A DNA stretch of 64,000 nucleotides from Bacteroidales bacterium (GTDB lineage Bacteria; Bacteroidota; Bacteroidia; Bacteroidales; UBA10428), in assembly GCA_016935435.1 (NCBI GenBank), contig JAFGQZ010000060.1:31262-95261 (forward strand), in the 5' to 3' direction. Positions 2,946 through 63,731 of this stretch are shown here, in pieces. Both the position numbers and the translations under genes were made by a program. The notes under the pieces are model-generated. The model was not told where the DNA came from. It did no database searches and saw only the letters and a program-made list of their open reading frames with translations. The stretch's first letter is position 1. Each line of letters starts with the position of its first letter.

Positions 2946-3076
2946 GAATGCAGGAAATAAAATAATTAAGAATTACTGCTCACGGTTTGCTTTAAACATT
3001 GTAAAAGCAAGTAATAAGCTTAAACTTTAAACTTTAAACTTTAAACTTTGAACTTTAAACTTTGAACTTTAAACTA
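2946..3076. repeat. Composite simple-sequence element: degenerate GAATG/AT-rich and ACTGCTCAC modules, then 7 tandem AAACTTT/GAACTTT units (3022-3070) plus partial AAACTA
   Basis: Tandem 7-mers read directly. Same module order and same AAACTA terminal unit as the 1061-1190 element. It starts 19 bp downstream of the stop of the 3096..3278 ORF. Confidence 0.9.
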
Positions 3077-32129: not shown

Positions 32130-32378
32130 AATATTTGTGTTTATTTATGCAGAACTGCAAGCAAAAAAGTTGCTTTACAGTATCATCCGATTAATAAAGT
32201 ATTGTATTGCGAATTTACGGATTATATTATTTATGGTTGTTTGATTCTTTGCCCGTAATGCCCAATCTAGCCTGAATCGAATATGATTGCATAATATTTA
32301 ATTGAATATTAATTGGTTCTGTGGTGTGTGCCCTGCCAACTATCTAGTCTCAGGCATAAAAAAATCTAAGTTATTTTA

Positions 32379-33668: not shown

Positions 33669-33730
33669 GTTTTTAAAATTAAGTAAAAAAAAGCTGCAAG
33701 GTTATTCCTTGCAGCCTATAAATATTGTTG

Positions 33731-35239: not shown

Positions 35240-35289
35240 AATTTTATTTATTTTCTATTAGGTATATCCGTTAAACTATTTCTTCTTTG

Positions 35290-38200
35290 TTAAAATGTTA
35301 GGTTAAGGCCAAAGGTTAATGTCCTTGGCCGGGGATATACATTAAACCTGTCGATGCCCGGGCTGCTCAATGGATCCATTTTTCCCTCGGCTGCATTGTA
35401 GCTTTCAAGCCTAATTTCGGGGTCTAGTCCACTATAACCGGTTATCACAAAAAGGTTTTCGCCGGTTGCATAAACACGTAGTTTATCGATGCCGGCTTTA
35501 TTAATGTTAACCGTATAGCCCAGGGTCAACGACTGCAACCTGAAGAACGAAGCATCTTCAATCCAGTAGCTGCTAAAGGTTGTGTTCGATGTAATACTAT
35601 CGGCAAAAACCCTGTCGGGAACATTAAGGCCGGGGAAACGGTTCATAGTGTTCAGCGACATGGCCGTTGCATTAAGCACCTTTTGCCCGAAAAGGCCATA
35701 GGTTGAAATACTCAGGTCGAAACCCTTGAAGGTTAGCCCGGTGCTTATGCCCAGGTTTAATTTTGGTTGGGCATTTCCTAAATCTTTATTGAGGGTGTCG
35801 TTTGGCGACATAGTCAGAACTTTGCCATTTACATCGATAAATTTGCCGTTTTCGTTAAGGCCGGTGCATTCTTCACCCCAGAATGTGCCTACGGCATATC
35901 CTTCCCTTATGGTTTGGGAGTATTGGTTCGACATGCCTGGTAAGCCATGCAATGAGCCGGTTGGCACAGCTTCGGTTGTATAAATATCGTTCGACAGTTT
36001 TTCAATAACCATGTTGTTACGGGCCAATGAAAGGTTTATGTTCCATTGCAAATCTTTTTGTTGAATCACTGTATAATCGAATGTAATTTCTATCCCTTTG
36101 TTTGAAAGATCGCCAACATTTGCAAGTGTTTCGTGGAACAAGTTTGGGGGAATGGGTACTGCATAAGTGAACAACAGGTCGTTTGTAACTTTCTTGTACA
36201 GGTCGATTGTTGCCGAAAGCCTGTTAAAAACACTTATGTCGATACCAATATTCGTTTGGGTAGTAGATTCCCACTTCAGATCGGGGTTTGGGTTTTGTAT
36301 GGGGGAGTATGAAGCTTTCCAGGTTTGGGTAACTGGGTCGTAATATTTTCCGCCCACTGTTCCTAACAAGGCCAGCGATTTATATTCCCCAATGGCATCC
36401 TGGCTGCCGGTTACACCATAGCCCGCGCGCAATTTTAAATGGTTTAGCCAGTTCTGGCTGGAGGCCATAAAGGCTTCATCGGAAATTTTCCAGGCACCGG
36501 CAACCGAGGGGAACAAACCCCATTTGTTGTTTCCGCCAAAGCGGCTTGATCCGTCCTGGCGCAAAGTAGCGGTTATTATATACCGTCCGTTGAAGCTGTA
36601 ATTTGCCCTTCCGAAAAACGATATTAGTTTTGAATTTCCCTTGTATGAGCTAACATCATCGGTGCGGTAATCAATACCGGCACCAAGGCTGTTGTATAAA
36701 AACATGTCGGTATCGAAATAGCGACGCTGGGCAAAAAATCCTTCATAGGTGTTATCGAGGTATGAATAGCCACCCATAAGGTTAACCCTGTGCATACCGG
36801 CAAATTCTTTGTCGTAGTTCAGGTAGGTTTCTATTTGCTGTGTGTTATAATCGCCCAGCGAACGGTTGGCATACCCATGGTCGGTTGAGCGGAAGCGGTT
36901 TATCGGTAAATAGTACCTGCCCTGGTGCGAGCCATAAATCATCGAAGTGTTTACAATACCTTTAAGTCCGGGCAGAATTTCTAGTTCGGCTTTTGCATAG
37001 CCCAGAAACCTTTTGTTGGTTTGATCGTTGTTTAGGTTTTCCAACATTTCAACCGGGTTTTCAGCCAGGTTGTCGTTTGTTTGGAAGTATGCCCCGGTAG
37101 AATCGAAAACCGGCGCTGTGGGGTTCACATTGTATGTACGTTCAAAAACATAGTTGTCGATTGGGGTATAATTGTCGAATGTAGAATGAATTCCAAAATC
37201 GAGCTTAAGTTTTTTGTTTAAACCGTATGTGTGACCAGAAAGGCTGGCACCTAATCTTTGGAGGTATGAAGTTTTTATTACCCCCTGGTTGTCCATATAG
37301 GTTAAAGAGGCCCTGTAGCCGCCATCTTCGTTGGAACTGCTGAAGGATATGGTGTGCGACTGCGAAACCGATTTCTGCACTATTTCTTTTTGCCAGTCGG
37401 TATTGCCCCCATAATCAATGGCAGCAGTTTTTTCATATTCTTCAACTTTTTGCCTCCATTCATCGGCGCTTAGCATGTCGATATAATTCGAAGGCTTTGC
37501 GAATGCCACATAGTTCGAGTACTCAATATGTTTTCCTTTGCCCGGCTTCGAAGTAGTAATGATAATTACGCCGTTTGCACCCCTTGAGCCATATATTGCG
37601 GCCGATGAGGCATCTTTAAGCACATCGATGGAAACAATGTCGGAAGGTTGAATGGTGTTGATGTCAACCCCAGGAATACCATCGACTACTACCAGCGGAC
37701 TGCTGCTGGCACTTAAAGAGGTTCCTCCCCTTAAGCGCATGGTTGCCCCTTCTGTGGGGTCGCCTGAGCCTTTTATTACGGTTAAGCCGGCAACTTTTCC
37801 TTGTAGCATTTGCTCGGTGGTGGTAATTACCCCTTTATGCAAATCGTCGGCCGATACCGAAGTGATTGAACCGGTCAAATCTTGTTTTCGCATGGTGCCA
37901 TACCCTACAACCACAACCTCGCTCAGGCTAAGTATGTCCATGGTAAGGGTAACGTCGATATTGCGGTTTGTTCCAACGATAATTTCTTCGGTAAGATAGC
38001 CTATATATTGAAATACCAGTATGGCGTTTTCGTCGGGCACTTCAATCTGGTAGTTCCCGTTTAGGTCGGTTACTGTGCCCGTTGTAGTTCCTTTAACCAT
38101 TATGTTTACGCCTGGCAATGGTTCATTTTCATCGGAACTGGTTACTTTTCCTGTTATTAATAATTTCTGCAACATAAAACTTTCGCCCTTGTTGCCCAGC

Positions 38201-38547
38201 ACTATTTGTTTGCTTTTTATGCGGTAAGCAATTTGCGTGCCTGCAAAAAGTTCGTCCAGCACTGTTTCAATAGCTTTGTTTTCAAGGCTCATGGTTTTTT
38301 GCTGGTTAACGTCCACTTTTGCATTGTCGTAAAGAAAGGTGTAGTCGGTTTGCCTTTCAATTTCTTTCAGGATGCTCCGTATGGAGGTGTTTTCCATTTT
38401 TAAAGTGAGGAAGTCTTGCGAATAATTCGCCGATACTTTAAAAAAGCTTAATAAGATAAAAAGAAATGTAAATCTCATAGCCAGGAGTTTTTTTGAAGAT
38501 ACAATTATCTCCCTGAAATTTACATATTTGTCAATAATATTTTTCAT
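35290..38547 (-). CDS. SusC-type TonB-dependent transporter with N-terminal STN signalling domain
   Basis: 1085 aa. STN-like segment (SIRSILKEIERQTDYTFLY...), CarboxypepD_reg-like segment (ITGKVTSSDENEPLPGVNIMVKGTTTGTVTDLNGNYQI), plug (VVVGYGT, IRGG-like LRGGTS), and a C-terminal beta-barrel ending LTF. The true start may be MRFTFLF at 38478. Confidence 0.93.
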   Translation of the reverse strand: MKNIIDKYVNFREIIVSSKKLLAMRFTFLFILLSFFKVSANYSQDFLTLKMENTSIRSILKEIERQTDYTFLYDNAKVDVNQQKTMSLENKAIETVLDELFAGTQIAYRIKSKQIVLGNKGESFMLQKLLITGKVTSSDENEPLPGVNIMVKGTTTGTVTDLNGNYQIEVPDENAILVFQYIGYLTEEIIVGTNRNIDVTLTMDILSLSEVVVVGYGTMRKQDLTGSITSVSADDLHKGVITTTEQMLQGKVAGLTVIKGSGDPTEGATMRLRGGTSLSASSSPLVVVDGIPGVDINTIQPSDIVSIDVLKDASSAAIYGSRGANGVIIITTSKPGKGKHIEYSNYVAFAKPSNYIDMLSADEWRQKVEEYEKTAAIDYGGNTDWQKEIVQKSVSQSHTISFSSSNEDGGYRASLTYMDNQGVIKTSYLQRLGASLSGHTYGLNKKLKLDFGIHSTFDNYTPIDNYVFERTYNVNPTAPVFDSTGAYFQTNDNLAENPVEMLENLNNDQTNKRFLGYAKAELEILPGLKGIVNTSMIYGSHQGRYYLPINRFRSTDHGYANRSLGDYNTQQIETYLNYDKEFAGMHRVNLMGGYSYLDNTYEGFFAQRRYFDTDMFLYNSLGAGIDYRTDDVSSYKGNSKLISFFGRANYSFNGRYIITATLRQDGSSRFGGNNKWGLFPSVAGAWKISDEAFMASSQNWLNHLKLRAGYGVTGSQDAIGEYKSLALLGTVGGKYYDPVTQTWKASYSPIQNPNPDLKWESTTQTNIGIDISVFNRLSATIDLYKKVTNDLLFTYAVPIPPNLFHETLANVGDLSNKGIEITFDYTVIQQKDLQWNINLSLARNNMVIEKLSNDIYTTEAVPTGSLHGLPGMSNQYSQTIREGYAVGTFWGEECTGLNENGKFIDVNGKVLTMSPNDTLNKDLGNAQPKLNLGISTGLTFKGFDLSISTYGLFGQKVLNATAMSLNTMNRFPGLNVPDRVFADSITSNTTFSSYWIEDASFFRLQSLTLGYTVNINKAGIDKLRVYATGENLFVITGYSGLDPEIRLESYNAAEGKMDPLSSPGIDRFNVYPRPRTLTFGLNLTF

Positions 38548-50447: not shown

Positions 50448-50552
50448 AAACTTTAAACTTTGAACTTTGAACTTTAAACTTTGAACTTTGAACTTTAAAC
50501 TTTAAACTTTGAACTTTAAACTTTGAACTTTAAACTTTAAACTTTGAACTTT
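50448..50552. repeat. 15 perfect tandem heptamers (AAACTTT x8, GAACTTT x7) upstream of the hydrogenase operon
   Basis: Read directly. Unit order is A A G G A G G A A G A G A A G, where A=AAACTTT and G=GAACTTT. It begins 28 bp after the methyltransferase stop and ends 102 bp before the hydC start. Confidence 0.97.
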
Positions 50553-50654: not shown

Positions 50655-51173
50655 ATGGAAGAACATAAGTCAATATCACAGCAAAAATGCACATGCAGTA
50701 CTACAATAGACGAAGATTTGTTGTACGAGCAGTTAGATGACATAATTGAATTGCACAAAGGCAAAGAAGGGGCGCTTATCCCCATTCTTCAAAGCGCACA
50801 GAATTTGTTCGGTTACCTGCCCGAAGCAGCGCTGAAACAAATAAGCCGGAAACTGCACAAACCGTACAGTGAAGTTGCCGGGGTTGTAGGTTTCTATTCG
50901 TATTTTTCAACAGTTGCCAAAGGAAAACATACCATAAGGGTTTGCCTGGGCACAGCCTGTTATGTGCGTGGCGGTAAAGATGTGCTTAAATCGCTTATGG
51001 ACCACCTGAAAATTAATGTGAGCGAAACAACTGCCGACCGGAATTTCTCGCTTGAAGTCGGCCGCTGCTTCGGGGCATGTGGTTTGGCCCCTGTTATTAT
51101 GGTTGACGATGTTGTTTACCAGAAAGTAAAACCATCGAAAATTGCTGAAATACTAAAGCCATACATCGAATAG
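50655..51173 (+). CDS. hydC: NuoE/HydC-like [2Fe-2S] thioredoxin-fold subunit of the hydrogenase
   Basis: 172 aa. Cys ligand pattern CLGTACYVRG ... CFGACGLAPV. Confidence 0.9.
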   Translation: MEEHKSISQQKCTCSTTIDEDLLYEQLDDIIELHKGKEGALIPILQSAQNLFGYLPEAALKQISRKLHKPYSEVAGVVGFYSYFSTVAKGKHTIRVCLGTACYVRGGKDVLKSLMDHLKINVSETTADRNFSLEVGRCFGACGLAPVIMVDDVVYQKVKPSKIAEILKPYIE

Positions 51174-51200
51174 TTTACACCCCTTTCAAGTTTATAAACA

Positions 51201-54200
51201 ATGAAAAAAATACTAACTGCCAAGGATTTAAATGCCTCTAAGGAGGAATTTGCCCCACGGGTTGCCCGGCCGGGAAACGATATACGCGAAAAAATTCTGG
51301 TGTGTACCGGTGGGGGTTGTATTGCCGGTGGATCGCTCGAAATTAAAAAACGTTTCGAAGAAGAACTTAAAAATAAAAACCTCGATAAAACGGTTAAAGT
51401 TATCGGCACCGGGTGCCTGGGGCCCTGCTCAAAAGGCCCTGTGGTTATTATGGCCAAAGAAAGGGTTTTTTATCACGATGTAAAGCCCGATGATGTGGCA
51501 GAAATTGTTCTGAGCCACATTGTTGAAGGTACAATAGTTGAAAGGCTGGTTTATAAAGACGACAGCGACAAAAAGCCCCTTCCACTGGAAAAAGACATTA
51601 AATTTTTTAAAAGGCAAACCAAGGTTGTGTTGCGCAATTGCGGGAATATCGATCCATACAGCATCGAAGATTATATTGCTGTAGGGGGGTATCAGGCTTT
51701 GGCCATGGTTATTACCAAAATGACTGCCGACGATGTAATAACCGAAATGGAAAAATCGGGGCTCAGGGGCAGGGGAGGAGCTGGTTTTCCTACGTTTATG
51801 AAATGGAAACTGGCAAAAAACAATCCATCGGAACAAAAATATATTTTGTGCAATGCCGACGAGGGCGACCCGGGTGCATACATGGACCGCAGCATTCTCG
51901 AAGGCGATCCCCACAGCATAATCGAAGGAATGGCCATTGGCGCTTATGCCATTGGCGCTTCGCTGGGCTATGTTTATGTCAGGGCCGAATACCCGCTTGC
52001 TGTCGAACGTTTGCAACATGCAATAAATAATGCCCGTGAAGCCGGCTTGCTCGGAAAAAATATTTTAAGCTCAGGTTTTTCTTTCGATTTAGAAATACGC
52101 ATGGGCTCAGGGGCTTTTGTTTGTGGCGAAGAAACAGCATTGATAGCCTCAATAGAGGGAAAACGCGGCGAACCCAGGCCCCGGCCGCCTTTTCCTGCGC
52201 AGTCGGGCTTATGGGGCAAGCCTACGGTGCTAAATAATGTTGAAACTTTTGCCAATGTTTCGGCCATTATGCTTAATGGAGGAAACTGGTACGCTTCTAT
52301 GGGCACCGAAAAAAGCAGAGGCACTAAAATATTTGCCTTGGCAGGGGCAATTGCAAATTCTGGTTTATTTGAAGTGCCTGTTGGTACAACCTTAGGCGAC
52401 TTAATATACGATATTGGTGGAGGCACAAGCAGCGGAAAGCCTTTTAAGGCAGCACAAATTGGCGGACCTTCAGGTGGGTGCATTCCCAGGCAACACCTCA
52501 ATGTGCCGCTCGACTATGAATCGCTCAACGAACTGGGCGCCATTATGGGTTCTGGGGGTCTTATTGTTATGGATGAAGATTCGTGTATGGTGGATGTGGC
52601 AAAATTTTTCCTCGAATTTGTACAGGAAGAATCATGTGGCAAATGTACCCCTTGCCGTGTCGGGACAAAACGCATGTACGAAATTCTCGAACGCATTACA
52701 ACCGGGAAAGGCAAGGAAGGCGATATCGAAAAGCTGATAGACTTAGGTCAATATATCAAAAAAACGGCCCTATGTGGGCTTGGCCAGTCAGCGCCAAATC
52801 CGGTGCTTTCAACCATAAGGTATTTCAGGCATGAGTACGAAGCACATATCAAAGAATACAAGTGCGAAGCTGGAGTTTGTTCCGATTTGGTTCGTGCTCC
52901 TTGTCAAAGTGCATGCCCTGCCGGGGTCGATGTTCCCGGCTTTGTGTCGCTGGTGGGCGAAAAGCGCTATGCCGAGGCATTGAAATTGCACCGCGAGCGC
53001 AACCCTTTTGCAGCAGTATGTGCCCGGGTTTGTTTCCACACCTGCGAAGATAAATGCCGCCGTTCTACAATTGATGAGCCGGTTTCTATTCGCGGTACTA
53101 AACGTTTTATGGTCGATCAGGAAATAACTGTTCAACTGCCCGAGATAAAAGAAAATGCAGCAAATGCCTCGAAGAAAATTGCCATTGTCGGCGCAGGCCC
53201 TGCCGGCTTGTCGTGTGCGTATTTTCTGGCACGTTTGGGTTATAAGCCAAAAGTATTTGAGGCGGAATTCCGTCCGGGGGGCATGTTGGTGCAAACAATA
53301 CCTGCATACCGGCTTCCCAGGGAAATTTTGGCTCGCGAGATACGTATGATCGAGAACATGGGGGTCGATATTGAAACAGGTAAGAAGCTGGGAACCGACT
53401 TTACCCTGTCATCTTTAAAGGATGAGGGGTACGATGCAGTTTTTCTGGGCGTTGGTGCCCCCAAGGGTCTGAAACCCAATATTCCCGGAATCGATACGGA
53501 CGGAGTTGTTGATGCGCTTCAGTTTCTTCAAACCTATAACCTGCGTGGTTCTGTTCCGGTTAAAAAGAAAATAATTGTTGTAGGCGGGGGCAACGCGGCC
53601 ATCGATGCTGCACGGACAGCAATTCGGCTTGGCGCCGAAGAAGTTCGGGTAGTGTATCGCCGTACGCAGGAAGAAATGCCTGCCTGGGCCGAAGAAATCG
53701 ACGCCGCCATTGAAGAAGGCATATTGCTCCACACCCTTACAAACCCTGTCGAAATTATCAGTAAAAATGGAATAGTATCGGCCGTAAAATGTACTGCCAT
53801 GAAATTGGGCGATTTCGACAAGAGTGGCCGAAGGGCTCCTGTAACAGGTGATGAAACGTTTGTTTTCAATGCCGATCAAATAATTTTAGCCACTGGGCAA
53901 ACATTAGATTGTTCGGTAATTTTTAACGGTATTGCCCTAGAAACAAAAGATAATAATAAAATTAAATGCAATCCGGTTTCAGGGCAGACATCGGTGCCCT
54001 GGATATTTACCGGGGGCGATGCAGCTACCGGCCCTTCGTCGGTTATACAAGCTGTGGCTGGCGGAGAGGCTGCTGCTGTTGGCATAGATGAATTTCTTAC
54101 CGGCGAAAAGCATGCCTTCTGGCGCGAACATAAAAAGGTTGATACGTTCTTCGACCCGGATGACGAACCGGCACCATTCCCACGTAAGAACATGACACTT

Positions 54201-54314
54201 CTTTCGGTCGAACGGCGCAAAGTAAACTTCGACGAGGTTGAACAGGTTTGGGCAGAAGGCGAAGCTGTACGCCAGGCAAAGCGTTGCCTGCGCTGCGATT
54301 ACGGAAAATGTTAA
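51201..54314 (+). CDS. hydB: NuoF/HydB-like FMN/[Fe-S] subunit fused to a GltD/NfnB-like NAD(P)H:FAD oxidoreductase
   Basis: 1037 aa. N-terminal [2Fe-2S] fold (VCTGGGC...GTGCLGPC). NuoF core (GLRGRGGAGFPT, CNADEGDPGAYMDR, ESCGKCTPCRVG). From about aa 555, GltD-type motifs: CQSACPAG...NPFAAVCARVCFHTCEDKC, IAIVGAGPAGLSCAYFLARLG and VVGGGNAAIDAARTA. Confidence 0.9.
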   Translation: MKKILTAKDLNASKEEFAPRVARPGNDIREKILVCTGGGCIAGGSLEIKKRFEEELKNKNLDKTVKVIGTGCLGPCSKGPVVIMAKERVFYHDVKPDDVAEIVLSHIVEGTIVERLVYKDDSDKKPLPLEKDIKFFKRQTKVVLRNCGNIDPYSIEDYIAVGGYQALAMVITKMTADDVITEMEKSGLRGRGGAGFPTFMKWKLAKNNPSEQKYILCNADEGDPGAYMDRSILEGDPHSIIEGMAIGAYAIGASLGYVYVRAEYPLAVERLQHAINNAREAGLLGKNILSSGFSFDLEIRMGSGAFVCGEETALIASIEGKRGEPRPRPPFPAQSGLWGKPTVLNNVETFANVSAIMLNGGNWYASMGTEKSRGTKIFALAGAIANSGLFEVPVGTTLGDLIYDIGGGTSSGKPFKAAQIGGPSGGCIPRQHLNVPLDYESLNELGAIMGSGGLIVMDEDSCMVDVAKFFLEFVQEESCGKCTPCRVGTKRMYEILERITTGKGKEGDIEKLIDLGQYIKKTALCGLGQSAPNPVLSTIRYFRHEYEAHIKEYKCEAGVCSDLVRAPCQSACPAGVDVPGFVSLVGEKRYAEALKLHRERNPFAAVCARVCFHTCEDKCRRSTIDEPVSIRGTKRFMVDQEITVQLPEIKENAANASKKIAIVGAGPAGLSCAYFLARLGYKPKVFEAEFRPGGMLVQTIPAYRLPREILAREIRMIENMGVDIETGKKLGTDFTLSSLKDEGYDAVFLGVGAPKGLKPNIPGIDTDGVVDALQFLQTYNLRGSVPVKKKIIVVGGGNAAIDAARTAIRLGAEEVRVVYRRTQEEMPAWAEEIDAAIEEGILLHTLTNPVEIISKNGIVSAVKCTAMKLGDFDKSGRRAPVTGDETFVFNADQIILATGQTLDCSVIFNGIALETKDNNKIKCNPVSGQTSVPWIFTGGDAATGPSSVIQAVAGGEAAAVGIDEFLTGEKHAFWREHKKVDTFFDPDDEPAPFPRKNMTLLSVERRKVNFDEVEQVWAEGEAVRQAKRCLRCDYGKC

Positions 54315-54344
54315 CAGGGCGATAATGTTTAAAATACAATTATA

Positions 54345-56114
54345 ATGAGCACAATTTCAGTAACAATAAATAATATAAAAGTTGATGTTGAAAGCGGTAG
54401 TACCATACTCGATGCTGCAAAAAAAGCCGGGGTAAAAATACCAACGCTTTGCCATGTCGAATCGCAAATTCCTAAAGGTGCATGCCGTGTTTGTATGGTC
54501 GAGGTCGAAGGCGCCCGCAGCCTGGTTGCTGGTTGTACTACACCAGCTACAAATGGTATGGTAGTGAAAACCAATACCAAAAATGTGCGCGATGCACGCA
54601 AATTTGTTTTGGAACTACTGCTCTCTGAGCATTGCGGCGATTGCAAAACCTGTGAACGCAACAACGATTGCGAACTCCAGGCACTTGCCCGAGAAATGGG
54701 CATTTCGCAGGTAACCTACGAGGGCGATTGCCTGGTTTCGGTTATTGACGATTCGACGCCGGCACTGGTGCGCGACAGCGGAAAATGCATTAAATGCCGG
54801 CGGTGTGTCACTGTCTGTAACGAAGTGCAGGAAGTTGGTTCCTTATTTCCTCAGGGAAGAGGTTTCGAATCGAATATTGGGCCTGCATTTGATCAACACC
54901 TGGCAGAAGTGCCTTGTGTACAATGCGGACAGTGTTCTGCAATTTGCCCGGTTGGGGCAATTATTGAAAAAAGCCATATCGAAGGAGTATGGGCTGCACT
55001 TGATAACCCCGATAAGTTTGTAGTTGTGCAGACAGCGCCGGCAATACGTGCTGCTCTTGGCGAATGTTTCGATTATGAGCCTGGCACCCTGGTTACCGGT
55101 AAAATGGTTACTGCCCTTCGCCAGCTTGGGTTCGACAGGGTTTTCGACACCAATTTCACTGCCGACCTTACCATTATGGAAGAGGGCACAGAGTTGCTGG
55201 TGCGCCTGAAAAAAGCCCTTGTCGATAAAGAAAAAGTTGCCCTTCCCCAATTTACCAGTTGTTCGCCTGGCTGGATAAATTATGCCGAATATTTCTATCC
55301 CGAAATACTCGACAATATATCTTCGTGTAAATCGCCCCAGCAAATGTTTGGTGCGGTAGCAAAAACATACTATGCAAATAAAGTTGGCAAAAAGCCCGAA
55401 GATATTATAGTTGTTTCTGTAATGCCCTGTACCGCAAAGAAATTCGAGGCACAGCGCCCCGAAATGAACAGCAGCGGGGTTTGCGATGTCGATTATGTTT
55501 TAACTACCCGCGAATTGGGAAAGATGATAAAACAAGCCGGTATCGATTTTAAAAACCTGCCCGAAGGTAAAATGGACTCGCCATTGGGCCAGAGTTCGGG
55601 CGCTGCCGATATTTTTGCCAATACCGGCGGTGTAATGGAAGCCGCCATCCGCACAGCATACGAAATTGTTACAGGCCGTGAATTGCCTCTTGAAGGTTTA
55701 CATATTCAACCTATTATGGGGCTCGAAGGTGTAAAAAGGGCTTCATTGAAAATCGAAGGTACAAAACCTGAATGGAGTTTCCTCGAAGGGGTTGAACTAA
55801 AGGTTGGCGTGGCACATGGATTAGGTAATGCACGCAGAATAATAGAAATGATGCAATCGGGCGAGGTATTTCATTTTATTGAAGTTATGACCTGCCCCGG
55901 CGGGTGCATTGGAGGTGGCGGACAGCCCCGCTTTACTACCGATGAAGTGAGGAAAAAACGTATCGAGGCAATTTATAAAGAAGATGAGGGTAAAAAACTC
56001 CGGAAATCGCACGAGAACCCCGAAATATTGCAGATTTACGAAGAGTTCCTGAAAGAACCTCTGAGCCATTTGTCGCATAAATTGCTGCACACACATTACG
56101 TTTCGAAGAATTAA
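54345..56114 (+). CDS. hydA: [FeFe]-hydrogenase catalytic subunit (M3 architecture, group A-like)
   Basis: 589 aa. N-terminal [2Fe-2S]; His-ligated [4Fe-4S] (HCGDCKTCERNNDC); two ferredoxin-type clusters (CIKCRRCVTVC, CVQCGQCSAICP). H-cluster motifs: L1 FTSCSPGW, L2 MPCTAKKFE, L3 EVMTCPGGCIGGGGQP. Confidence 0.93.
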   Translation: MSTISVTINNIKVDVESGSTILDAAKKAGVKIPTLCHVESQIPKGACRVCMVEVEGARSLVAGCTTPATNGMVVKTNTKNVRDARKFVLELLLSEHCGDCKTCERNNDCELQALAREMGISQVTYEGDCLVSVIDDSTPALVRDSGKCIKCRRCVTVCNEVQEVGSLFPQGRGFESNIGPAFDQHLAEVPCVQCGQCSAICPVGAIIEKSHIEGVWAALDNPDKFVVVQTAPAIRAALGECFDYEPGTLVTGKMVTALRQLGFDRVFDTNFTADLTIMEEGTELLVRLKKALVDKEKVALPQFTSCSPGWINYAEYFYPEILDNISSCKSPQQMFGAVAKTYYANKVGKKPEDIIVVSVMPCTAKKFEAQRPEMNSSGVCDVDYVLTTRELGKMIKQAGIDFKNLPEGKMDSPLGQSSGAADIFANTGGVMEAAIRTAYEIVTGRELPLEGLHIQPIMGLEGVKRASLKIEGTKPEWSFLEGVELKVGVAHGLGNARRIIEMMQSGEVFHFIEVMTCPGGCIGGGGQPRFTTDEVRKKRIEAIYKEDEGKKLRKSHENPEILQIYEEFLKEPLSHLSHKLLHTHYVSKN

Positions 56115-56133: not shown

Positions 56134-56883
56134 CTAAAAATTAAGGGTTAAAAATGAGGCTCCATTTTTATTTTGAGCTGCTGACAATACCATTTCGCGC
56201 ATGTTTCTGTGAAATTGCCGTATTATTTTAGTGTGGTAATAGGGGTAAAAAAATGTGTCGCGCAAACCCGAATTGCTTTTAAAATAGCTTAAATGGCTTA
56301 TTTGGGTTGTTCCGTTGCCATTGTCGATAAAATGCAACACTTGTTTTCCTTGCGATTTGTTGCCATCGATATAACTGAATTCAATTATTTTTTCATCAGC
56401 ATCGACCCGAATTATTTCAAAAGCAACTGGTACGTTAAACAAACCTTTCATGAGTTTCAGGTCGAGAAAATAAACCTGCCCGGTATCGATTTCTGAAAAG
56501 TTTACACAATCGGTATATACAACAGAATTTGTTGGTTTTAGAATAAGCAGGGCAAATTTCACAAACCGGCCGTTCCAGCTTTTTGCCGGACTGGCAACTT
56601 TGTAGCACTCCCAAACATGGTTTATTTCATCGTTGAGGTAAAAAATTTTTTCGTGGGTACAAAAACCAGTTGGATCTATTGTATCGTTCCAGCTCGATTT
56701 AATTGCGGAGTAGTTTTCCAGCTTGTTTATTTCTTTATCGGCTATATACCTGCGCACTTTTTTGTGTGGTATTTGCTGCAGGTCAATTGTTTGTTTGCTT
56801 ATGGTTTGGGCAAAGGCATATAAGGGGCAAAGTAAAAAACACAACAGCACTGCTTTCCATAAGGTATTGTAAACTTTCATCAA
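56134..56883 (-). CDS. Hypothetical secreted protein
   Basis: 249 aa. Signal peptide (LLCFLLCPLYAFAQ). No recognisable motif. Confidence 0.6.
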   Translation of the reverse strand: MMKVYNTLWKAVLLCFLLCPLYAFAQTISKQTIDLQQIPHKKVRRYIADKEINKLENYSAIKSSWNDTIDPTGFCTHEKIFYLNDEINHVWECYKVASPAKSWNGRFVKFALLILKPTNSVVYTDCVNFSEIDTGQVYFLDLKLMKGLFNVPVAFEIIRVDADEKIIEFSYIDGNKSQGKQVLHFIDNGNGTTQISHLSYFKSNSGLRDTFFYPYYHTKIIRQFHRNMREMVLSAAQNKNGASFLTLNF

Positions 56884-58679: not shown

Positions 58680-61600
58680 GTGAAAAAAACTGTCAAATTT
58701 TTAATTATACTCATTCTTTACCTGGTTGAACTGACAACGGGAAGTTTTGCTGATGCCTCTGCACAAACTTGTTCCGGAGGGGTTTTAATTGCCGAAGATT
58801 CTTCCAGATGTGAAAATGAACCCACATTGCTTACTTTAACAGGCTCTAATGGCACCCATACCTGGCTTTATAGGATTGCCGGCTCCACAGATTGGGATGT
58901 TTTAAGCCCAGAGCAAAATACATTTATGTACGTACTGCCCGAAACCGAGCGGGAATATACTGTATTATCAACTGGTAGCGGGGGGTGCTCGGAATATTCA
59001 AGTATCGTAACCCTTAGGGTAAGTAGTTTTGTCCAAATGCCCAACCCGGGTGCTTATTCCGATGCTTGTGGTAACAATATTGCGCTGTATGCATATTCAC
59101 CTACAGGCGGGTTGACCGGATATTGGTCAGCTGTGTCGGGGCCGGGAGAAATAGTTTTTTATCCCGATGCCTACAGAATCAACCCTGATAGTGCTATAGC
59201 AAGTGAATATGGTACATACCAGATTGCTTGGAATATTACCGATGGAATATGCACCAAAGACACAATTATTGAGGTAGATGTTTTAGAAATACCTGTGGCC
59301 AATGCAGGGCCAAATTTCGATGCATGCGGTAGAACCTTTAATATGAACGCAATACAAAGTGTTGCCGGTTCTACTGGCGAGTGGGTCAAAGTTTCGCCAC
59401 CCAGCGGTGTTTTTAATTTTATAAATAACACTAACCCGCAAACAGAGGTTAACGCTAACCCAGGCACTTACCAAATTCGCTGGATTGAAAGAAATGGTTT
59501 TTGCCAGGATGATACAATTATACAAGTCAGGGTAGCCGATCAACCTAAAGCAGATGCTGGTGCAGGCTCCAGTGTTTGTGGGTTGGGATCGTTTGTTTCT
59601 GCAATTCCAAGTATCGGGTTGGGTAATTGGCAATTGCTTTCGGCACCTGGTTCAATAACTTATGGTGGAAATAATTCAAACTTGCCTGAAAATAACCTGG
59701 TTGCATCGGATTATGGCGAAAACTATATTTTGCAGTGGAAAGAGATTAACGGTTTTTGTTCCGACTCCGATACTATTGTTATCAACTTTTACGAACAGCC
59801 GGTTGTCACTGCTATTGACCCCGACGATGCCTGCGGATTGACAACTTTGCTGACAGCTTATACATCTACGGCTTCAAACTCTGTAATAAGGAACTGGTCG
59901 CAAACTAATGGCCCCGGGGGCATTGAAACTATTGAGCCGCTAAACGATTCGGTTGCACGGGTTTCCCTAAAGCCTGGTTTTTATGGTAGCTACTCTTTTC
60001 AATATACCGAAACCAATGGCATTTGTTCCGACAGCACCGAGGTTGCCCTTACATTCTTTGAGCAACCTGCTGCCAATGCCGGCAGTGATATGGATACCTG
60101 TGGTTTGGGCGCACAAATGAATGCTATAACAAGTGTTGCCGGAAGCACAACGCTATGGGCTGTTGACGGCGATGGTACGGCTGTAACTTTTTCCGATTCA
60201 ACATCTGAAAACTCTGCCGTAAGTTCATTGGAGCCTTCGGTTTACAGGTTCGTATGGGCCGAAACCAATGGTGTTTGTTCATCGTCCGATACGGTTGTGG
60301 TGGAATTTATTCAGGTGCCCAGGGCAAATGCCGGTTTGCCCGACAGAATATGCGGTAAGCAATATATGCTTAACGCCGTGCGCGATATTGCCGGCAGCAG
60401 TTTAAGCTGGAAAAACTTAGGCACACCCGGCGAAATTGTGTTTTCCGACAGCACACTGCCCAATTCAGGCATTACTGCTGCAAGTTACCATGCTTATCCG
60501 CTTGAGCTTACAGAAACTTATCGCTCTTGTTATTCTTCCGATACAATAACCATACAGTTTATCGAAACTCCTTTGGCAAATGCTGGAATTGATATTGAAA
60601 CCTGCGGGCTGGAGCTTAATTTGTCGGCATCGCGAAGCATTGCTGGAAGCAGCATACAATGGCTTGCCCCAACAGCTTCAGGGCTTGGGTTTACCAACCC
60701 TTCTTCGGTGAACACCGATGTTAATTCCGAAACGTATGATGCATTCAATATTTTTTTAGTTGAAACAAATGTATTTTGCTCCGACACCGATACGGTTGTT
60801 GTCGATTTTATTGAAATACCTGCACCCAGTGCAGGAGTTTCAGACAGTATATGCGGGTTGAACTACAGTTTGAATGCTAACGGCAGCATTGAAGGTAGCT
60901 TTCTTTCATGGTTAAGCCCGGCTGGCATTACTATTTCTGAGAATACCGATCCTAAAGCCGAAGCTGTAGCTGAAGTTTACGGATTGTACAGGGTTGTTCT
61001 TGAAGAAACAAACCGTATCTGTTCCTCGTCCGATACTATAGAAATTTTATTTATTAAAGTTCCCATAGCCAATGCTGGTCAGCCCGATAGTATATGCGGA
61101 CTGGAATATACTTTACAGGCAAAAAAAGAATTTCCTGGTTCAAACGGAACCTGGTATGAAATAGCCAGTCCAAACGATATTCCAATAACTGCCAACGAAA
61201 CTGCTTTAGCAAAAGTGGGTTCGCCGGGCATACATTATTTCAAATGGACCGAGACCAATATTGTTTGTTCTGCTTCCGATACAGTTTCGATAGATTTTAT
61301 TGAAATACCCATAGCAAACGCCGGCCTGCCAGACAGTGCCTGCGGGTTTGAATATACCCTTAATGCCTCTCGGAGTGTTGAAAACTCAACCGGGCAATGG
61401 GCGCTGGTTTCGGAAACCGGTACAACGGTTATTTCAACCAATTTCTCAACACCGGCCATAGTGGGGGCAGCAGGGGTTTACAATTACCAGTGGACTGAAA
61501 TAAACCGGATTTGCCCCGATACCTCTTATACAAGCATAACTTACTTTGTTCAGCCTAAAGCTGAAATAATCAACGCCAACGATGCCTGCGCAAGGGAACA

Positions 61601-62813
61601 AACCATTGAGGTTTCGCCTTTAACGGGAAATTACGGAAGGTGGCTATACCAAAGCAATAGTGGCGAAGCTGTTTTTGAGCAAGTAAGCGGTGACGAAAAT
61701 AAATATAACATACTGGTTAGCGATACCGGTAAATATTTGGTTAACTGGCAGGTATATAATGCTGCTTGTTCCGACGACACCATTTTTACAATTGCTTTTT
61801 TTGTCCCGCCTTTAATAAGCGCAAGGTCTAATGATCTGGTCTGCGGCAAGTTCGACACCTTAAATGCCATATCGAATATTGGCAATGGCTTATGGAAACA
61901 ATTGCCGGGCACAGGTACATCTGTAATAAGGCGCATAAACGATAGTTTGTCGATAGTGCAGGTATCGGAAGCGGGCAATTATTCGTTTGTGTGGGAAGTG
62001 GTTAACGGCGCCTGTGTTTCAGATACAACCCTGAGGGTTAGTTTTCTTGAAATACCCAATGCCCACGCAGGCTACGATTCAAATATATGCGGACAGGTTA
62101 CTAAACTTAATGCTACACCCGATACTGGCTACTGGACTGTAGTTTCGGGACCCGGCGAACTCAAATTTTCGCCCGGTACAAATTCACCTTCACCGGTTGT
62201 ACATTGCCCTGAGTATGGCACTTATGCCCTTCGGTGGACGGCAGTAAACCAGATTTGTTCCGACACATCCTCAGTAAAACTGTTGTTTATTCCAAAGCCG
62301 GTAGCCAATGCGGGCGAAAATATTGAACTTAACAATAAGTTTGAGACCGATATAGCGGCTATGCAACCCCTTGAAGGAGATTATGGCGAATGGAAACTCT
62401 TGTCGGGCTCAGGCGATATTTTAAACCAGGGAGCAGCAGAAACCTTTGTACGCTCCTTATCGCTGGGCGAAAATGTTTTTGAATGGACAGTTTATAATTC
62501 GTTATTTGAAATGTGCCAGTCGAGCGATGAGCTATCTATTATGGTTTACGATATATTTATCCCCGAAGTAATTACACCCAATGGCGACAATGTTAACGAT
62601 ATATTTGAAATAACAGGAATTGAAGATATCGAAAATGTTGAAGTTACTGTATTTAACCGCTGGGGCATTGAGGTTTTTTATAGCGCAAACTATCAAAACA
62701 ACTGGGATGGCACCGGGAAAAACAACCAGGAACTTACCAACGATACCTATTTTTATGTTATTAACATTGCGGGTGCCGGGGTTAAAAAAGGATTTGTTGT
62801 AATAAAACGGTAA
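58680..62813 (+). CDS. Large secreted repeat protein with T9SS type-B (CHU_C / gliding-motility-associated) C-terminal sorting domain
   Basis: 1377 aa, GTG start, signal peptide. About 13 tandem modules of about 84 aa, each opening P.ANAG.D..CG and closing N..CS.SDT. C-terminal segment IPEVITPNGDNVNDIFEI...NRWG...NNWDG...TYFY. Confidence 0.9.
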   Translation: MKKTVKFLIILILYLVELTTGSFADASAQTCSGGVLIAEDSSRCENEPTLLTLTGSNGTHTWLYRIAGSTDWDVLSPEQNTFMYVLPETEREYTVLSTGSGGCSEYSSIVTLRVSSFVQMPNPGAYSDACGNNIALYAYSPTGGLTGYWSAVSGPGEIVFYPDAYRINPDSAIASEYGTYQIAWNITDGICTKDTIIEVDVLEIPVANAGPNFDACGRTFNMNAIQSVAGSTGEWVKVSPPSGVFNFINNTNPQTEVNANPGTYQIRWIERNGFCQDDTIIQVRVADQPKADAGAGSSVCGLGSFVSAIPSIGLGNWQLLSAPGSITYGGNNSNLPENNLVASDYGENYILQWKEINGFCSDSDTIVINFYEQPVVTAIDPDDACGLTTLLTAYTSTASNSVIRNWSQTNGPGGIETIEPLNDSVARVSLKPGFYGSYSFQYTETNGICSDSTEVALTFFEQPAANAGSDMDTCGLGAQMNAITSVAGSTTLWAVDGDGTAVTFSDSTSENSAVSSLEPSVYRFVWAETNGVCSSSDTVVVEFIQVPRANAGLPDRICGKQYMLNAVRDIAGSSLSWKNLGTPGEIVFSDSTLPNSGITAASYHAYPLELTETYRSCYSSDTITIQFIETPLANAGIDIETCGLELNLSASRSIAGSSIQWLAPTASGLGFTNPSSVNTDVNSETYDAFNIFLVETNVFCSDTDTVVVDFIEIPAPSAGVSDSICGLNYSLNANGSIEGSFLSWLSPAGITISENTDPKAEAVAEVYGLYRVVLEETNRICSSSDTIEILFIKVPIANAGQPDSICGLEYTLQAKKEFPGSNGTWYEIASPNDIPITANETALAKVGSPGIHYFKWTETNIVCSASDTVSIDFIEIPIANAGLPDSACGFEYTLNASRSVENSTGQWALVSETGTTVISTNFSTPAIVGAAGVYNYQWTEINRICPDTSYTSITYFVQPKAEIINANDACAREQTIEVSPLTGNYGRWLYQSNSGEAVFEQVSGDENKYNILVSDTGKYLVNWQVYNAACSDDTIFTIAFFVPPLISARSNDLVCGKFDTLNAISNIGNGLWKQLPGTGTSVIRRINDSLSIVQVSEAGNYSFVWEVVNGACVSDTTLRVSFLEIPNAHAGYDSNICGQVTKLNATPDTGYWTVVSGPGELKFSPGTNSPSPVVHCPEYGTYALRWTAVNQICSDTSSVKLLFIPKPVANAGENIELNNKFETDIAAMQPLEGDYGEWKLLSGSGDILNQGAAETFVRSLSLGENVFEWTVYNSLFEMCQSSDELSIMVYDIFIPEVITPNGDNVNDIFEITGIEDIENVEVTVFNRWGIEVFYSANYQNNWDGTGKNNQELTNDTYFYVINIAGAGVKKGFVVIKR

Positions 62814-63731
62814 ATGAGAAAAATTCTGGCATATATAACCTTTTTAATATTGCCCCTAGCTTCGTTGGCGCAATTGCATGTTTTATCCGATCAGTATGTT
62901 TTTAACGGACTGGCAATAAACCCTGCCTATGCCGGTAGCGAAGATGCGCTTTCCGCAACGCTGATGTACCGTAACCAATGGGTAGGTTTTAGCGGTGCGC
63001 CTAAAACCTTAACCGGTGCCATACACTCGCCATTGGGCAAAGAACGGGTTGCCCTGGGGTTGCTTGTGTTAAATGATATTATTGGGGTAAACAGCCAGAC
63101 CAGCATTATGGGGAATTATGCTTATAAAATTGAAGCGGGACCGGGCAAACTATCTTTCGGGGTTGGTGTGGGGGTTACATTGCTCGATATAGGCTGGGAC
63201 GAGCTCAAAACCATTCAAATCGACGATATTGAACTGTTGGGCAAGTCGGAGCAGGTTTCTAACCCTAATTTCAGTGCCGGGGTGTATTATAAATCAAAAC
63301 AAATGTTTTTGGGCGTGTCTGTTCCTTTCTTTCTCAGTTATGCATATAATTCCAGCGATAAGTCAATTGATCTCAAGAACGATATTTCGGAATATAACTA
63401 TCATATTTTGGGTGGATATATATTCGATATAAGCCCAAAACTAAAGTTTCAGCCTTCGGCCCTGTTAAAATATCATGCCGGTAATGCTGTTCAGGTCGAT
63501 ATTAGCCCACTCTTAATTTTAAAAGAAAGAATGTGGATGGGGCTTACTTTTCGGACAAACGATGCGCTGGCTGCTCTAATACAGTTTGCCCTTACCGAAC
63601 AGTTTAAGTTTGCTTATTCTTACGACTTCGACATTAGCAAAACAGGCAGTTACCACCGTAATTCCCACGAGGTAATGCTTAAATTTGTTTTGGGGTACAA
63701 AGCGCTGGTAGCGGGGCCTAAAAGGTTCTAA
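62814..63731 (+). CDS. PorP/SprF-family type IX secretion system outer-membrane protein
   Basis: 305 aa. Signal peptide, then SDQYVFNGLAINPAYAG (PorP/SprF N-terminal signature). Its ATG directly abuts the TAA of the upstream cargo gene. Confidence 0.9.
   Translation: MRKILAYITFLILPLASLAQLHVLSDQYVFNGLAINPAYAGSEDALSATLMYRNQWVGFSGAPKTLTGAIHSPLGKERVALGLLVLNDIIGVNSQTSIMGNYAYKIEAGPGKLSFGVGVGVTLLDIGWDELKTIQIDDIELLGKSEQVSNPNFSAGVYYKSKQMFLGVSVPFFLSYAYNSSDKSIDLKNDISEYNYHILGGYIFDISPKLKFQPSALLKYHAGNAVQVDISPLLILKERMWMGLTFRTNDALAALIQFALTEQFKFAYSYDFDISKTGSYHRNSHEVMLKFVLGYKALVAGPKRF

Follow-up and report, generated by a model that had tools for sequence, protein, structure and literature searches.

The HydDB group A2, 'glutamate-synthase-linked' [FeFe]-hydrogenase, is recognised by the assignment of the HydDB classifier together with an adjacent GltD-like gene. 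In Bfu enzymes ferredoxin docks on the domain carrying clusters B3/B4 (PMC12018979), and BfuB has been defined by the domains IPR011538, IPR019554 and IPR019575 plus a C-terminal IPR017896 (clusters B3/B4) (PMC9304861). In Stn the GltD-like part is held in the HydA/NuoG-like subunit, as was correctly stated in the original prediction for the DNA studied here; a Lys of StnC ligates the FAD-proximal cluster, and the FAD of StnC was shown to be non-bifurcating (PMC10482914). Fusion of a HydB-type to a GltD-type part has been described by genomics in Vallitalea guaymasensis L81 (PMC6163223, 2018), under the name 'sub-type I BfuB' in Hydrogenedentota and further phyla (PMC11406978, 2024), and in archaeal hybrid hydrogenases (PMC11216029, 2024). 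These three reports make the implied novelty of the present fusion weaker than was first thought, and the locus is a new Bacteroidales case of a fusion type described from genomes. A literature search in which subscription journals were thinly covered brought up no biochemical or structural work on the fusion, an absence that is not proof.

The locus lies in a 64-kb window (the whole stretch of DNA analysed, 64,000 nucleotides) and comprises the following features:

50655..51173, + strand: hydC (NuoE-like, 172 aa), predicted C1 [2Fe-2S] subunit (Pfam 2Fe-2S_thioredx, 160 bits)
51201..54314, + strand: hydB-gltD fusion gene, 1037 aa, the whole of the finding
51291..51509, + strand: N-terminal thioredoxin-like [2Fe-2S] domain, cluster B5, with C35, C40, C72 and C76 (Pfam)
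51750..52262, + strand: FMN/NAD(H)-binding domain with GLRGRGGAGFPT and CGEETAL (Pfam Complex1_51K, 161.9 bits)
52584..52880, + strand: B2-site ligands C462, T500, H549, C555 and C560 (alignment to A. mobile HydB)
52593..52847, + strand: [4Fe-4S] cluster B1 (N3-type) domain with C479, C482, C485 and C525 (Pfam NADH_4Fe-4S, 124 bits)
52893..53126, + strand: GltD/DPD-type iron-sulfur domain with C568, C572, C607, C611, C615, C619 and K634 (Pfam Fer4_20)
53175..54065, + strand: FAD and NADP(H) Rossmann domains (GAGPAGL; GGGNAAID...VYRRT.EEMPA; GGD) (Pfam Pyr_redox_2, 112.8 bits)
54183..54311, + strand: C-terminal segment corresponding to the permuted N-terminus of canonical GltD/NfnB (…NFDEVE…AKRCLRC) (collinear alignment)
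54345..56114, + strand: hydA, M3-type [FeFe]-hydrogenase catalytic subunit, 589 aa (Pfam, NCBIfam and structural relatives)

The reading frame of the fusion was uninterrupted over its 1037 codons, with zero internal stops. Pfam matches were obtained for 2Fe-2S_thioredx (residues 31-103), Complex1_51K (184-354), SLBB (378-426) and NADH_4Fe-4S (465-549), followed in the C-terminal half by Fer4_20 (551-642) and Pyr_redox_2 (659-955), bearing out the single ORF joining HydB/NuoF-type and GltD/NfnB-type modules that had been proposed. The motifs quoted with that proposal, GLRGRGGAGFPT, SCGKCTPCRVG, CQSACPAG, CARVCFHTCEDKC, IVGAGPAGL and VVGGGNAAID, were all found. The identical protein in NCBI is MBN2486188.1, from a Bacteroidales MAG and labelled just 'NuoF'. 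Homologues of about 1037 aa, 70-92% identical to the fusion, formed more than 120 clusters (at 90% identity), and the 80 best genome loci, from about ten phyla, all matched it over roughly residues 1-1036. The junction …HI….C.AGVC..LVRAPC.SACP… was kept among the fusion homologues and was identical in 11 of 11 divergent representatives, which suggests a single origin of the hydB-gltD fusion. A frameshift or missed stop near 52.85 kb, named beforehand as what would separate the gene into two, is excluded by the full-length homologues and the conserved junction. The fusion is thus confirmed as real and widespread.

The HydB half (residues 1 to about 565) aligned without gaps to A. mobile HydB (771 bits) and to 7q4v_B (753 bits), and at least 58% of its residues were identical to those of bifurcating HydB structures. 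Its FMN/NAD(H) domain aligned likewise to the bifurcating HydB structures 7t2r_B and 7q4v_B, and the glycine loop of this domain was conserved at 90% or more in the homologue alignment. The B1 cysteines were invariant (81 of 81 sequences) and those of B5 were kept in 80-81 of the 81 homologues. Using the B2 ligand list of A. mobile HydB (PMC9304861), C438, C476, H525, C531 and C536 mapped to C462, T500, H549, C555 and C560, with no gap and an offset of +24. Four of these positions were invariant in the 81 sequences; the fifth, position 500, was C in 59 and T in 21. Every ligand position of B1, B2 and B5 is therefore kept in the HydB half, with T at 500 in the present protein. A B2 site occupied by Zn or [2Fe-2S] is typical of bifurcating BfuB.

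With respect to the BfuB definition, the FMN-binding 51-kDa, SLBB and Nuo51-type 4Fe-4S domains were all recognised in the fusion by Pfam, the SLBB match with 27.6 bits against a cut-off of 27. The B2 ligands include the His that non-bifurcating homologues lack (PMC9304861), and homologues of BfuC (NuoE-like) and BfuA are co-encoded. The ferredoxin-type 4Fe-4S domain (B3/B4) is absent: Pfam gave Fer4_20 but no match of the Fer4 type. The HydB alignments end at residues 565-566 and the GltD-type alignment begins at 565, so that the GltD module occupies exactly the B3/B4 slot of canonical HydB, starting 8 residues past the last B2 ligand. By these endpoints the GltD part substitutes for the ferredoxin-type clusters with which, as the original prediction noted, HydB normally ends.

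In the GltD half, the Fer4_20 match covered only profile positions 15-109. When the C-terminal segment was moved before residue 565, one collinear alignment to residues 11-463 of NfnB (4ylf_B) was obtained, and the reordering raised the scores against NfnB, DPD and GltD. As judged from these alignments, the GltD half is circularly permuted, and C1029 and C1032 of RCLRC complete the first [4Fe-4S] cluster; both were conserved in 80 of 81 sequences, C1037 in just 6. The six cysteines of the iron-sulfur domain (C568 to C619) were invariant among homologues, as was K634 (81 of 81), which aligned to K170 of StnC and to the Glu ligand of NfnB. Against the NADPH modules of Stn/NfnABC the GltD half reached 382, 358 and 351 bits, more than against NfnB (293), DPD (182) or GltD (160). 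Its FAD/NADP(H) motifs were near-identical to those of the NADPH-binding StnC/NfnA structures 9bov_A, 8oh5_C and 9n5u_A, and YRR after the second Rossmann strand was the same as in NADPH-dependent StnC, NfnA and NfnB. G664, G666, P667, G795-G797, Y819, R820 and R821 were invariant in 35 homologues. This half is predicted to bind FAD and two [4Fe-4S] clusters and to offer a site for NADPH, the probable specificity of the FAD-type site for NADP(H) being read from its motifs. The fear that the GltD half might lack cofactor-binding residues was unfounded, as the sites of both modules were intact and invariant in homologues.

HydC presented the pattern C-x4-C-x35-C-x3-C, found in 78 of 78 partner HydCs. 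HydA gave Pfam matches to Fe_hyd_lg_C, Fe_hyd_SSU, Fer2_4 and NADH-G_4Fe-4S_3, and matched NCBIfam FeFe_hydrog_A6 with 881.7 bits (cut-off 765), a family titled 'NADH-dependent [FeFe] hydrogenase, group A6'. Its closest solved relatives were the bifurcating HydA1 chains 8a6t_A and 7q4v_A (614 and 605 bits). Its H-cluster motifs were TSCSPGW, MPCTAKKFE and EVMTCPGGCIGGGGQP; compared with the consensus (P1 TSCCPxW, P2 MPCxxKxxE, P3 ExMxCxxGCxxG), P2 and P3 were intact, and P1 had Ser for the second Cys (the proton-relay Cys299 of CpI), which may make the catalytic rate or bias of HydA unusual.

The three genes form the hydCBA operon of an [FeFe]-hydrogenase of the trimeric HydABC/Bfu type. In most of the best 80 loci hydC lies directly 5' of the fusion and the order is hydC-hydB*-hydA, with no further neighbour in more than 10 loci. 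As had been stated, hydE, hydF and hydG are missing from the 64-kb window (zero homologues found); neither an NfnA-like partner gene nor gltB was found in it, and no gltB-sized conserved neighbour in the 80 related loci. In four or five loci of Omnitrophota a canonical nfnA-nfnB pair lies 5' of the operon and rex 3', on one strand, and Rex-like genes flank 9 loci; such neighbours would suit an enzyme concerned with NAD(P)H redox balance. A search for the Rex operator TTGTGAAN4TTCACAA (up to 3 mismatches) gave 7 matches against 6.5 expected, none of them 5' of hydC. A heptamer repeat 5' of hydC was missing in all 87 related loci, and tRNA and Rfam scans of the window gave no matches.

A neighbour-joining tree of the NuoF halves of 50%-identity representatives was uninformative: many 'non-fused' representatives were truncated fusions, and degenerate lineages formed long branches. 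It showed only that canonical HydBs carrying two Fer4 motifs came nearly as close (distance 0.34 for the nearest) as did the nearest other fused cluster (0.30). An AlphaFold2 model of the 1037-aa protein (mean pLDDT 64, pTM 0.42, below 50 in the Fe-S domain and C-terminus) was set aside as poor, since the input alignment of 35 sequences, all at least 70% identical, was too shallow.

Two distinct flavin/pyridine-nucleotide modules plus an H-cluster subunit, the anatomy originally proposed, are supported by domains and motifs. The suggestion of an NADP-specific bifurcating enzyme is less likely, as the NuoF-type FMN site is an ordinary HydB site. At somewhat less than an even probability, the enzyme may couple H2 to NAD(H) and NADP(H), with an NADP(H) branch replacing the ferredoxin branch. 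This coupling, which we infer from the sequence, is compatible with all the evidence gathered. Electron exchange between HydA and the FMN/B1/C1 core would proceed as it does in HydABC, with NAD(H) at FMN, and the usual route from C1 through B3/B4 to ferredoxin would be redirected to the two GltD clusters, a non-bifurcating FAD and hydride exchange with NADP(H). The net reaction would be NADH + NADPH + 2 H+ <-> 2 H2 + NAD+ + NADP+, free of ferredoxin; in reverse, NADPH would be made from H2. With the physiological potentials that Schut et al. (PMC9304861) quote, −280 mV for NAD and −380 mV for NADP, the computed equilibrium H2 pressure is about 150 Pa for NADH + NADPH versus about 3 Pa for NADH alone, so that a saccharolytic fermenter could shed NADH as H2 at higher H2.

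The missing B3/B4 docking domain counts in favour of a ferredoxin-free branch, and the permutation and StnC-type Lys common to the fusion and Stn/NfnABC support an NADP(H) branch. Several points speak against the NADP(H) branch. In some Bfu structures B2 is occupied by a redox-inert Zn (PMC12018979); if this applies here, electrons would have to reach the GltD clusters through movement of the HydC C-terminal domain. Passing the 'low-potential' electrons to NADP+ would forfeit much of the energy that bifurcation usually conserves, NfnB-type Fe-S domains can dock ferredoxin, so that the fusion might carry a ferredoxin site, and HydA, with Ser in P1, may be unusual in rate or bias. The wider claim is rather doubtful: that the enzyme is the first of the Bfu type to end its low-potential branch with a pyridine nucleotide in place of ferredoxin, that it is obligately coupled and ferredoxin-independent, either making H2 from NADH + NADPH or splitting the electrons of H2 to NAD+ and NADP+, using the gap of about 100 mV between the two cellular pools, and that it occurs widely, in Bacteroidota, Planctomycetota, Verrucomicrobiota, Omnitrophota and further phyla.

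Both nucleotide sites being intact, NADH at FMN and NADPH at FAD might instead feed the H-cluster independently, in a non-bifurcating dual-cofactor NAD(P)H hydrogenase with no obligatory coupling. HydB homologues without B3/B4 are held to be non-bifurcating (Schut 2022, PMC9304861; sub-type II in PMC11406978), and the NCBIfam title of the HydA family points the same way. Nevertheless, the bifurcating-BfuB traits of Schut et al. are kept, with H549 and the cysteines of B2 and the N-terminal B5 conserved, the solved structures nearest to HydB and to HydA belong to bifurcating enzymes, and NADH alone can yield H2 only where H2 is very low. Independent feeding is thus considered unlikely, though by no means negligible.

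It is quite improbable that the enzyme handles four substrates, with ferredoxin docking at the GltD-type Fe-S domain in the manner of NfnB and the FAD acting as a second NfnB-like bifurcation centre, which would combine hydrogenase with Nfn-type transhydrogenase chemistry. This idea, and the possible second bifurcating FAD centre, were raised for 'sub-type I BfuB' in PMC11406978. The module is indeed homologous to NfnB (293-311 bits), in which the two clusters lead to ferredoxin, and R704, the equivalent of NfnB R201, is conserved; however, the same Arg occurs in StnC without the N5 contact (PMC10482914), an invariant Lys stands here for the Glu ligand of NfnB, matching StnC with its experimentally non-bifurcating FAD, the module is nearer to Stn/NfnABC than to NfnB, and the window holds no NfnA-like partner to give a second acceptor near the FAD.

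A tie to glutamate metabolism was speculated for the Vallitalea genome (PMC6163223), and homology to GltD (160-172 bits) would allow the module to serve as small subunit for a GltB-type large subunit, with H2/NADH driving glutamate synthesis. This is highly improbable: true GltD is the most distant solved relative, gltB is missing from the window and from the conserved neighbours of the 80 loci, and the permuted topology and Lys ligand are traits of Stn/NfnABC NADPH modules. That assembly or sequencing had welded two genes together is hardly credible and was rejected, no evidence in its favour being found and the uninterrupted full-length protein recurring in more than 120 clusters and the best 80 genome loci, across many phyla and different assemblers.

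If the NADP(H) branch does take over from the ferredoxin branch, electron-bifurcating hydrogenases would gain a new type of reaction and the 'flavobicluster' model a natural test, since the low-potential outlet alone differs around an identical core; H2 thresholds and NADPH supply would be remodelled for abundant anaerobic polysaccharide degraders. Annotation would be affected too: at present the fusions go under 'NuoF' or 'FAD-dependent oxidoreductase', while their hydrogenases are tallied as ordinary group A3 bifurcating enzymes. This locus is of limited value alone, as the class has already been flagged in the literature.

Among known systems, sub-type I BfuABC (PMC11406978) shares with the present locus the replacement of B3/B4 by DPD_II (Fer4_20) and a FAD/NAD(P) domain, the co-encoded bfuC and M3a-type bfuA with Ser in P1, and the spread among phyla by transfer. 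DPD_II and the C-terminal FAD/NAD(P) domain were found here in a bfuC-B-A cluster with an M3a-type BfuA, and the locus of a Hydrogenedentales MAG was among the full-length homologues (64% identity). Cultured carriers include Vallitalea guaymasensis L81 and, as homologues listed in PMC11406978, Syntrophus gentianae DSM 8423 and Desulfotignum balticum DSM 7044. The present copy differs in coming from a Bacteroidales MAG, Bacteroidota being unlisted for sub-type I in the accessible text of that paper, and in having no BfuD gene adjoining the fusion operon. The accessible portions of PMC11406978 and PMC6163223 are silent on the permutation, the C-terminal CxxC, the Lys ligand and the retention of B2 ligands. 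The NfnAB (NfnSL; 4ylf, 5jca) large subunit also has FAD/NADPH domains and two [4Fe-4S] clusters, but that subunit is collinear: its CxxC is N-terminal, its cluster ligand is Glu, its FAD bifurcates and it is paired with NfnA. These traits are not apparent in the fusion: the N-terminal C-x2-C-x4-C-x3-CP of NfnB and GltD proper is permuted, Lys stands for Glu, and the window has neither nfnA nor gltB. In HydABC and NiFe-HydABCSL (7q4v, 8a6t, 7p5h, 7t2r), HydC, the HydB core (B5, FMN, B1 and B2 ligands) and HydA are close homologues; the fusion lacks their ferredoxin-like B3/B4 and has a 470-residue FAD/NADP(H) module instead. Stn (Sporomusa ovata StnABC, 8oh5) and NfnABC/Nfn-Bfu (9n5u, 9bov) share with the fusion operon the permuted GltD-type NADPH module, the Lys-ligated proximal cluster and the BfuBC-type core. 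There the module sits within a NuoG/HydA-like subunit that has no H-cluster, NADPH serves as third substrate at mid-potential and B3/B4 still give access to ferredoxin, whereas here the module is carried by HydB in the B3/B4 slot, next to a separate HydA with H-cluster motifs.

The middle gene of the hydC-hydB-hydA operon encodes an uninterrupted fusion, and its product was divided by Pfam into the domains listed below with the neighbouring genes.

50655..51173, NuoE/HydC-like gene, upstream neighbour of the fused hydB
51201..54314 (+), hydB-gltD fusion ORF, 1037 codons, uninterrupted
Residues 31-103 of the fused HydB, thioredoxin-like [2Fe-2S] domain
Residues 184-354, NuoF-type FMN domain
Residues 378-426, SLBB domain
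Residues 465-549, NuoF-type 4Fe-4S domain
Residues 551-642, Fer4_20 (DPD/GltD-type dicluster) domain
Residues 659-955, Pyr_redox_2 (two-Rossmann) domain
54345..56114, [FeFe]-hydrogenase HydA, 589 aa, downstream neighbour of the fused hydB

Two NCBIfam models, NuoF and a GltD-like 'NAD(P)-binding protein', each matched one half of the fused HydB, and HydA scored 881.7 bits against the NCBIfam 'group A6' model, above its cut-off of 765. The ORF, Pfam and the homologues bore out the original prediction of a NuoF/HydB and GltD fusion, and all the motifs quoted in it were found in the ORF. The exact protein is NCBI MBN2486188.1 (Bacteroidales MAG, annotated as 'NuoF'), and homologues of about 1037 aa with 70–92% identity form more than 120 clusters (90% identity) in public data. 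A genome scan with one genome per species, from which the best 80 loci were taken, gave matches over approximately residues 1-1036 at 62–80% identity in 80/80, from Bacteroidota, Ignavibacteria, Planctomycetota, Verrucomicrobiota/Kiritimatiellales, Omnitrophota, Fibrobacterota, Spirochaetales, Myxococcota, Acidobacteriota, Hydrogenedentales and TA06. These clusters and full-length loci refute an assembly or sequencing artefact, and a frameshift or missed stop near 52.85 kb separating two genes was not borne out, the ORF being open and its homologues full length across phyla. The order hydC, fused hydB, hydA was found in nearly all sufficiently long loci among the best 80, and no further neighbour family recurred in more than 10 of them. 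In the library of 50%-identity representatives about 13 more full-length fusions (32–51% identity) were present among the top 150 matches, the nearest (P0121, 51% identity) again in the arrangement hydC, fused hydB, hydA with a Bacillota-like context.

Residues 29-565 aligned without gaps to HydB of the Acetomicrobium mobile bifurcating NiFe-hydrogenase (7t2r_B, 771 bits); 7q4v_B, a bifurcating FeFe HydB (753 bits), StnB and BfuB of NfnABC aligned almost as well. The ligands of the B2 site (Zn or [2Fe-2S]) in A. mobile HydB, C438, C476, H525, C531 and C536 (Schut et al., PMC9304861), map by an offset of +24 to C462, T500, H549, C555 and C560, of which C462, H549, C555 and C560 are invariant among 81 homologues, with either Cys or Thr at position 500. 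Cluster B5, the N-terminal [2Fe-2S], keeps its four Cys in 80-81/81 homologues and the N3-type cluster B1 its four in 81/81. Since the B2, B5 and B1 ligands are conserved, the entire HydB core tied to bifurcation by Schut et al. is retained. All HydB alignments end at residue 565-566, no Fer4 family was matched by Pfam in the fused HydB, and clusters B3/B4 are missing together with the ferredoxin-like C-terminal domain that holds them.

From residue 565 the best matches were to the NADPH module within the NuoG-like subunit of the Stn/NfnABC transhydrogenases (9bov_A, 382 bits; 8oh5_C, 358 bits; 9n5u_A, 351 bits), with lower scores for NfnB (293), DPD (182) and true GltD (160 bits). The Stn alignments reach the extreme C-terminus of the fused HydB (NFDEVE…AKRCLRC). 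To ask whether the tail represents a canonical GltD/NfnB N-terminus that has been displaced, residues ~990-1036 were placed before residue 565 and the sequence was realigned. A single collinear alignment to NfnB residues 11-463 resulted, and the scores rose (NfnB 311.5, NfnI-L 294, DPD 197, GltD 168-172), so that the GltD module is circularly permuted as in Stn/NfnABC. The Fer4_20 match, which begins only at profile position 15 as compared with canonical NfnB, agrees with this permutation. C1029 and C1032, kept in 80/81, correspond to the first two Cys of the canonical C-x2-C-x4-C-x3-CP motif, and C568 and C572 to the last two; C611, C615 and C619 complete the second cluster. The leftover C1037 is not conserved (6/81 homologues). 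The motifs GAGPAGL, GGGNAAID…VYRRT.EEMPA and GGD for FAD/NADPH are invariant in homologues and nearly identical to those in NADPH-dependent relatives; with the cluster Cys also conserved, a GltD half devoid of cofactor-binding residues was not what the alignment revealed. All 81 close homologues carry C607 (nt 53019-53021); Stn/NfnABC have Ile in its place, and distant fusion lineages vary at this position.

In HydA the P1 H-cluster motif (residues ~301-307) reads TSCSPGW, with Ser standing for the second Cys of the aligned FTSCCPGW of CpI and DdH. Among about 70 HydA partners of the fused HydB, 64 share this Ser, a variant noted earlier in Melainabacteria (PMC3787301) and in PMC11406978.

Eight residues lead from C560, the last B2 ligand, to C568, the first Cys of the GltD module. 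The junction is gap-free in 11/11 divergent representatives, including lineages with a decayed FMN site, which argues for a single ancient fusion event and for the B2 site and GltD module forming one functional unit. In a sister NuoF-GltD lineage (P0144 at L085/L086, 6001-9117, with relatives P0131, P0171, P0174 and P0237) the FMN loop and the N3 motif have decayed, the ligands of the B2 site and of the GltD module are intact, and there is an additional C-terminal Fer4-type extension. At L085 the fusion is preceded by a 705-aa molybdopterin oxidoreductase and a ferredoxin with four clusters, and the locus therefore probably encodes a formate-dehydrogenase-like complex. Downstream of a further fused HydB (P0122 at L084, 927-4094; 47% identity) come a 132-aa ORF and a NuoG-like protein of 403 aa; as the latter has no H-cluster domain, the fused-HydB chassis may serve non-[FeFe] partners too.

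In the current model of bifurcating (Bfu) enzymes the bifurcation site consists of FMN, B1 and the HydC [2Fe-2S] cluster C1, and low-potential electrons pass from C1, carried by the mobile C-terminal domain of HydC, through B3/B4 to ferredoxin, whose docking place lies between the B3/B4 domain and HydC (PMC12018979). In the fused enzyme the B3/B4 domain is replaced by two GltD-type clusters that would lead to an FAD/NADP(H) site of the kind found in Stn, which does not bifurcate. On the simplest interpretation NADP(H) would take over from ferredoxin as branch partner, with the net reaction NADH + NADPH + 2 H+ <-> 2 H2 + NAD+ + NADP+. Using the physiological potentials of Schut et al. (NAD −280 mV, NADP −380 mV) and E(H2) = −414 − 29.6 log pH2, the coupled reaction is calculated to balance at about 150 Pa H2 versus about 3 Pa for NADH alone. 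The predicted anatomy of two flavin/nucleotide sites plus an H-cluster stands with its ligands intact; the proposed coupling of H2 to NAD(H) and NADP(H) would be compatible with it.

The idea, put forward as speculation in PMC11406978, that the FAD is a second bifurcation centre of the NfnB kind and that ferredoxin remains a substrate is disfavoured by the Stn-type affinity of the GltD module and by the invariant Lys K634. The equivalent of K634 is a Glu that ligates the cluster in NfnB, and is Lys170 in StnC, where structure and mutagenesis showed the FAD to be non-bifurcating (PMC10482914). Uncoupled dual entry of NAD(P)H is a less probable alternative and fits poorly with the retention of every bifurcation-associated feature, and a link to glutamate synthase found no support.

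Genomic context supports a role of the hyd operon in NAD(P)H balance, because four or five Omnitrophota loci (L041, L045, L057, L077, and L055) carry nfnA, nfnB, hydC, fused hydB, hydA and rex in this order on one strand and Rex-like genes adjoin 9 loci. In the Omnitrophota loci this array spans about 3-13.6 kb (locus coordinates), with a 275-aa nfnA and a 465-aa nfnB, both canonical, directly upstream of hydC and a Rex-like repressor gene downstream; at L057 the nfnA, nfnB and rex families were confirmed by Pfam. Within the 64-kb window neither gltB, nfn nor rex was found, and the search upheld the predicted absence of hydE/F/G. The setting is that of a saccharolytic Bacteroidota (SusC/SusD locus, GH97, GH99, sulfatase; T9SS cargo, PorP). 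Features of the window include the following.

30129-38547, polysaccharide utilisation locus: SusC-like (1085 aa), SusD-like, GH99-like and GH97, sulfatase nearby
58680-63731, 1377-aa T9SS cargo protein with CHU_C domain, then PorP/SprF
50448-50552, 1148-1189 and 3020-3075, intergenic tandem arrays of the heptamer AAACTTT, same unit and strand

The first two are typical Bacteroidota features. The longest heptamer array (15 copies, AAACTTT/GAACTTT alternating) lies directly upstream of hydC, and the repeat was not found in any of 87 related loci. The operon region (51000-55500) has a G+C of 0.46-0.485 versus 0.37-0.43 in the flanks, which fits cross-phylum operon mobility (62–80% identity across phyla) and may also be a simple effect of protein amino-acid composition. 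A 249-aa ORF without a Pfam match lies immediately 3′ of hydA on the opposite strand (56134-56883, −).

The fused architecture is on record three times, from sequence alone: in Vallitalea guaymasensis (PMC6163223, 2018), as 'sub-type I BfuB' in Hydrogenedentota and other phyla (PMC11406978, 2024) and in archaea (PMC11216029, 2024). It is stated to be biochemically unreported in PMC11406978; an incomplete literature search found no enzymology or structure of the fused enzyme. In archaeal hybrid hydrogenases, HydB carries a glutamate-synthase domain that was predicted to be the low-potential site (PMC11216029). In their survey of Bfu enzymes, Schut et al. (PMC9304861) required a Fer4 domain in BfuB, and the fused class was therefore probably left out. 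The observations of the original prediction (fusion, motifs, operon) were confirmed and its interpretation was supported in part. The fusion is an additional Bacteroidales representative of an architecture that is known but uncharacterised, to which are added here the exact replacement of B3/B4 with the B2, B5 and B1 ligands retained, the permutation shared with Stn, which puts a CxxC at the C-terminus, the invariance of the Lys ligand and the occasional linkage to nfnAB and rex.
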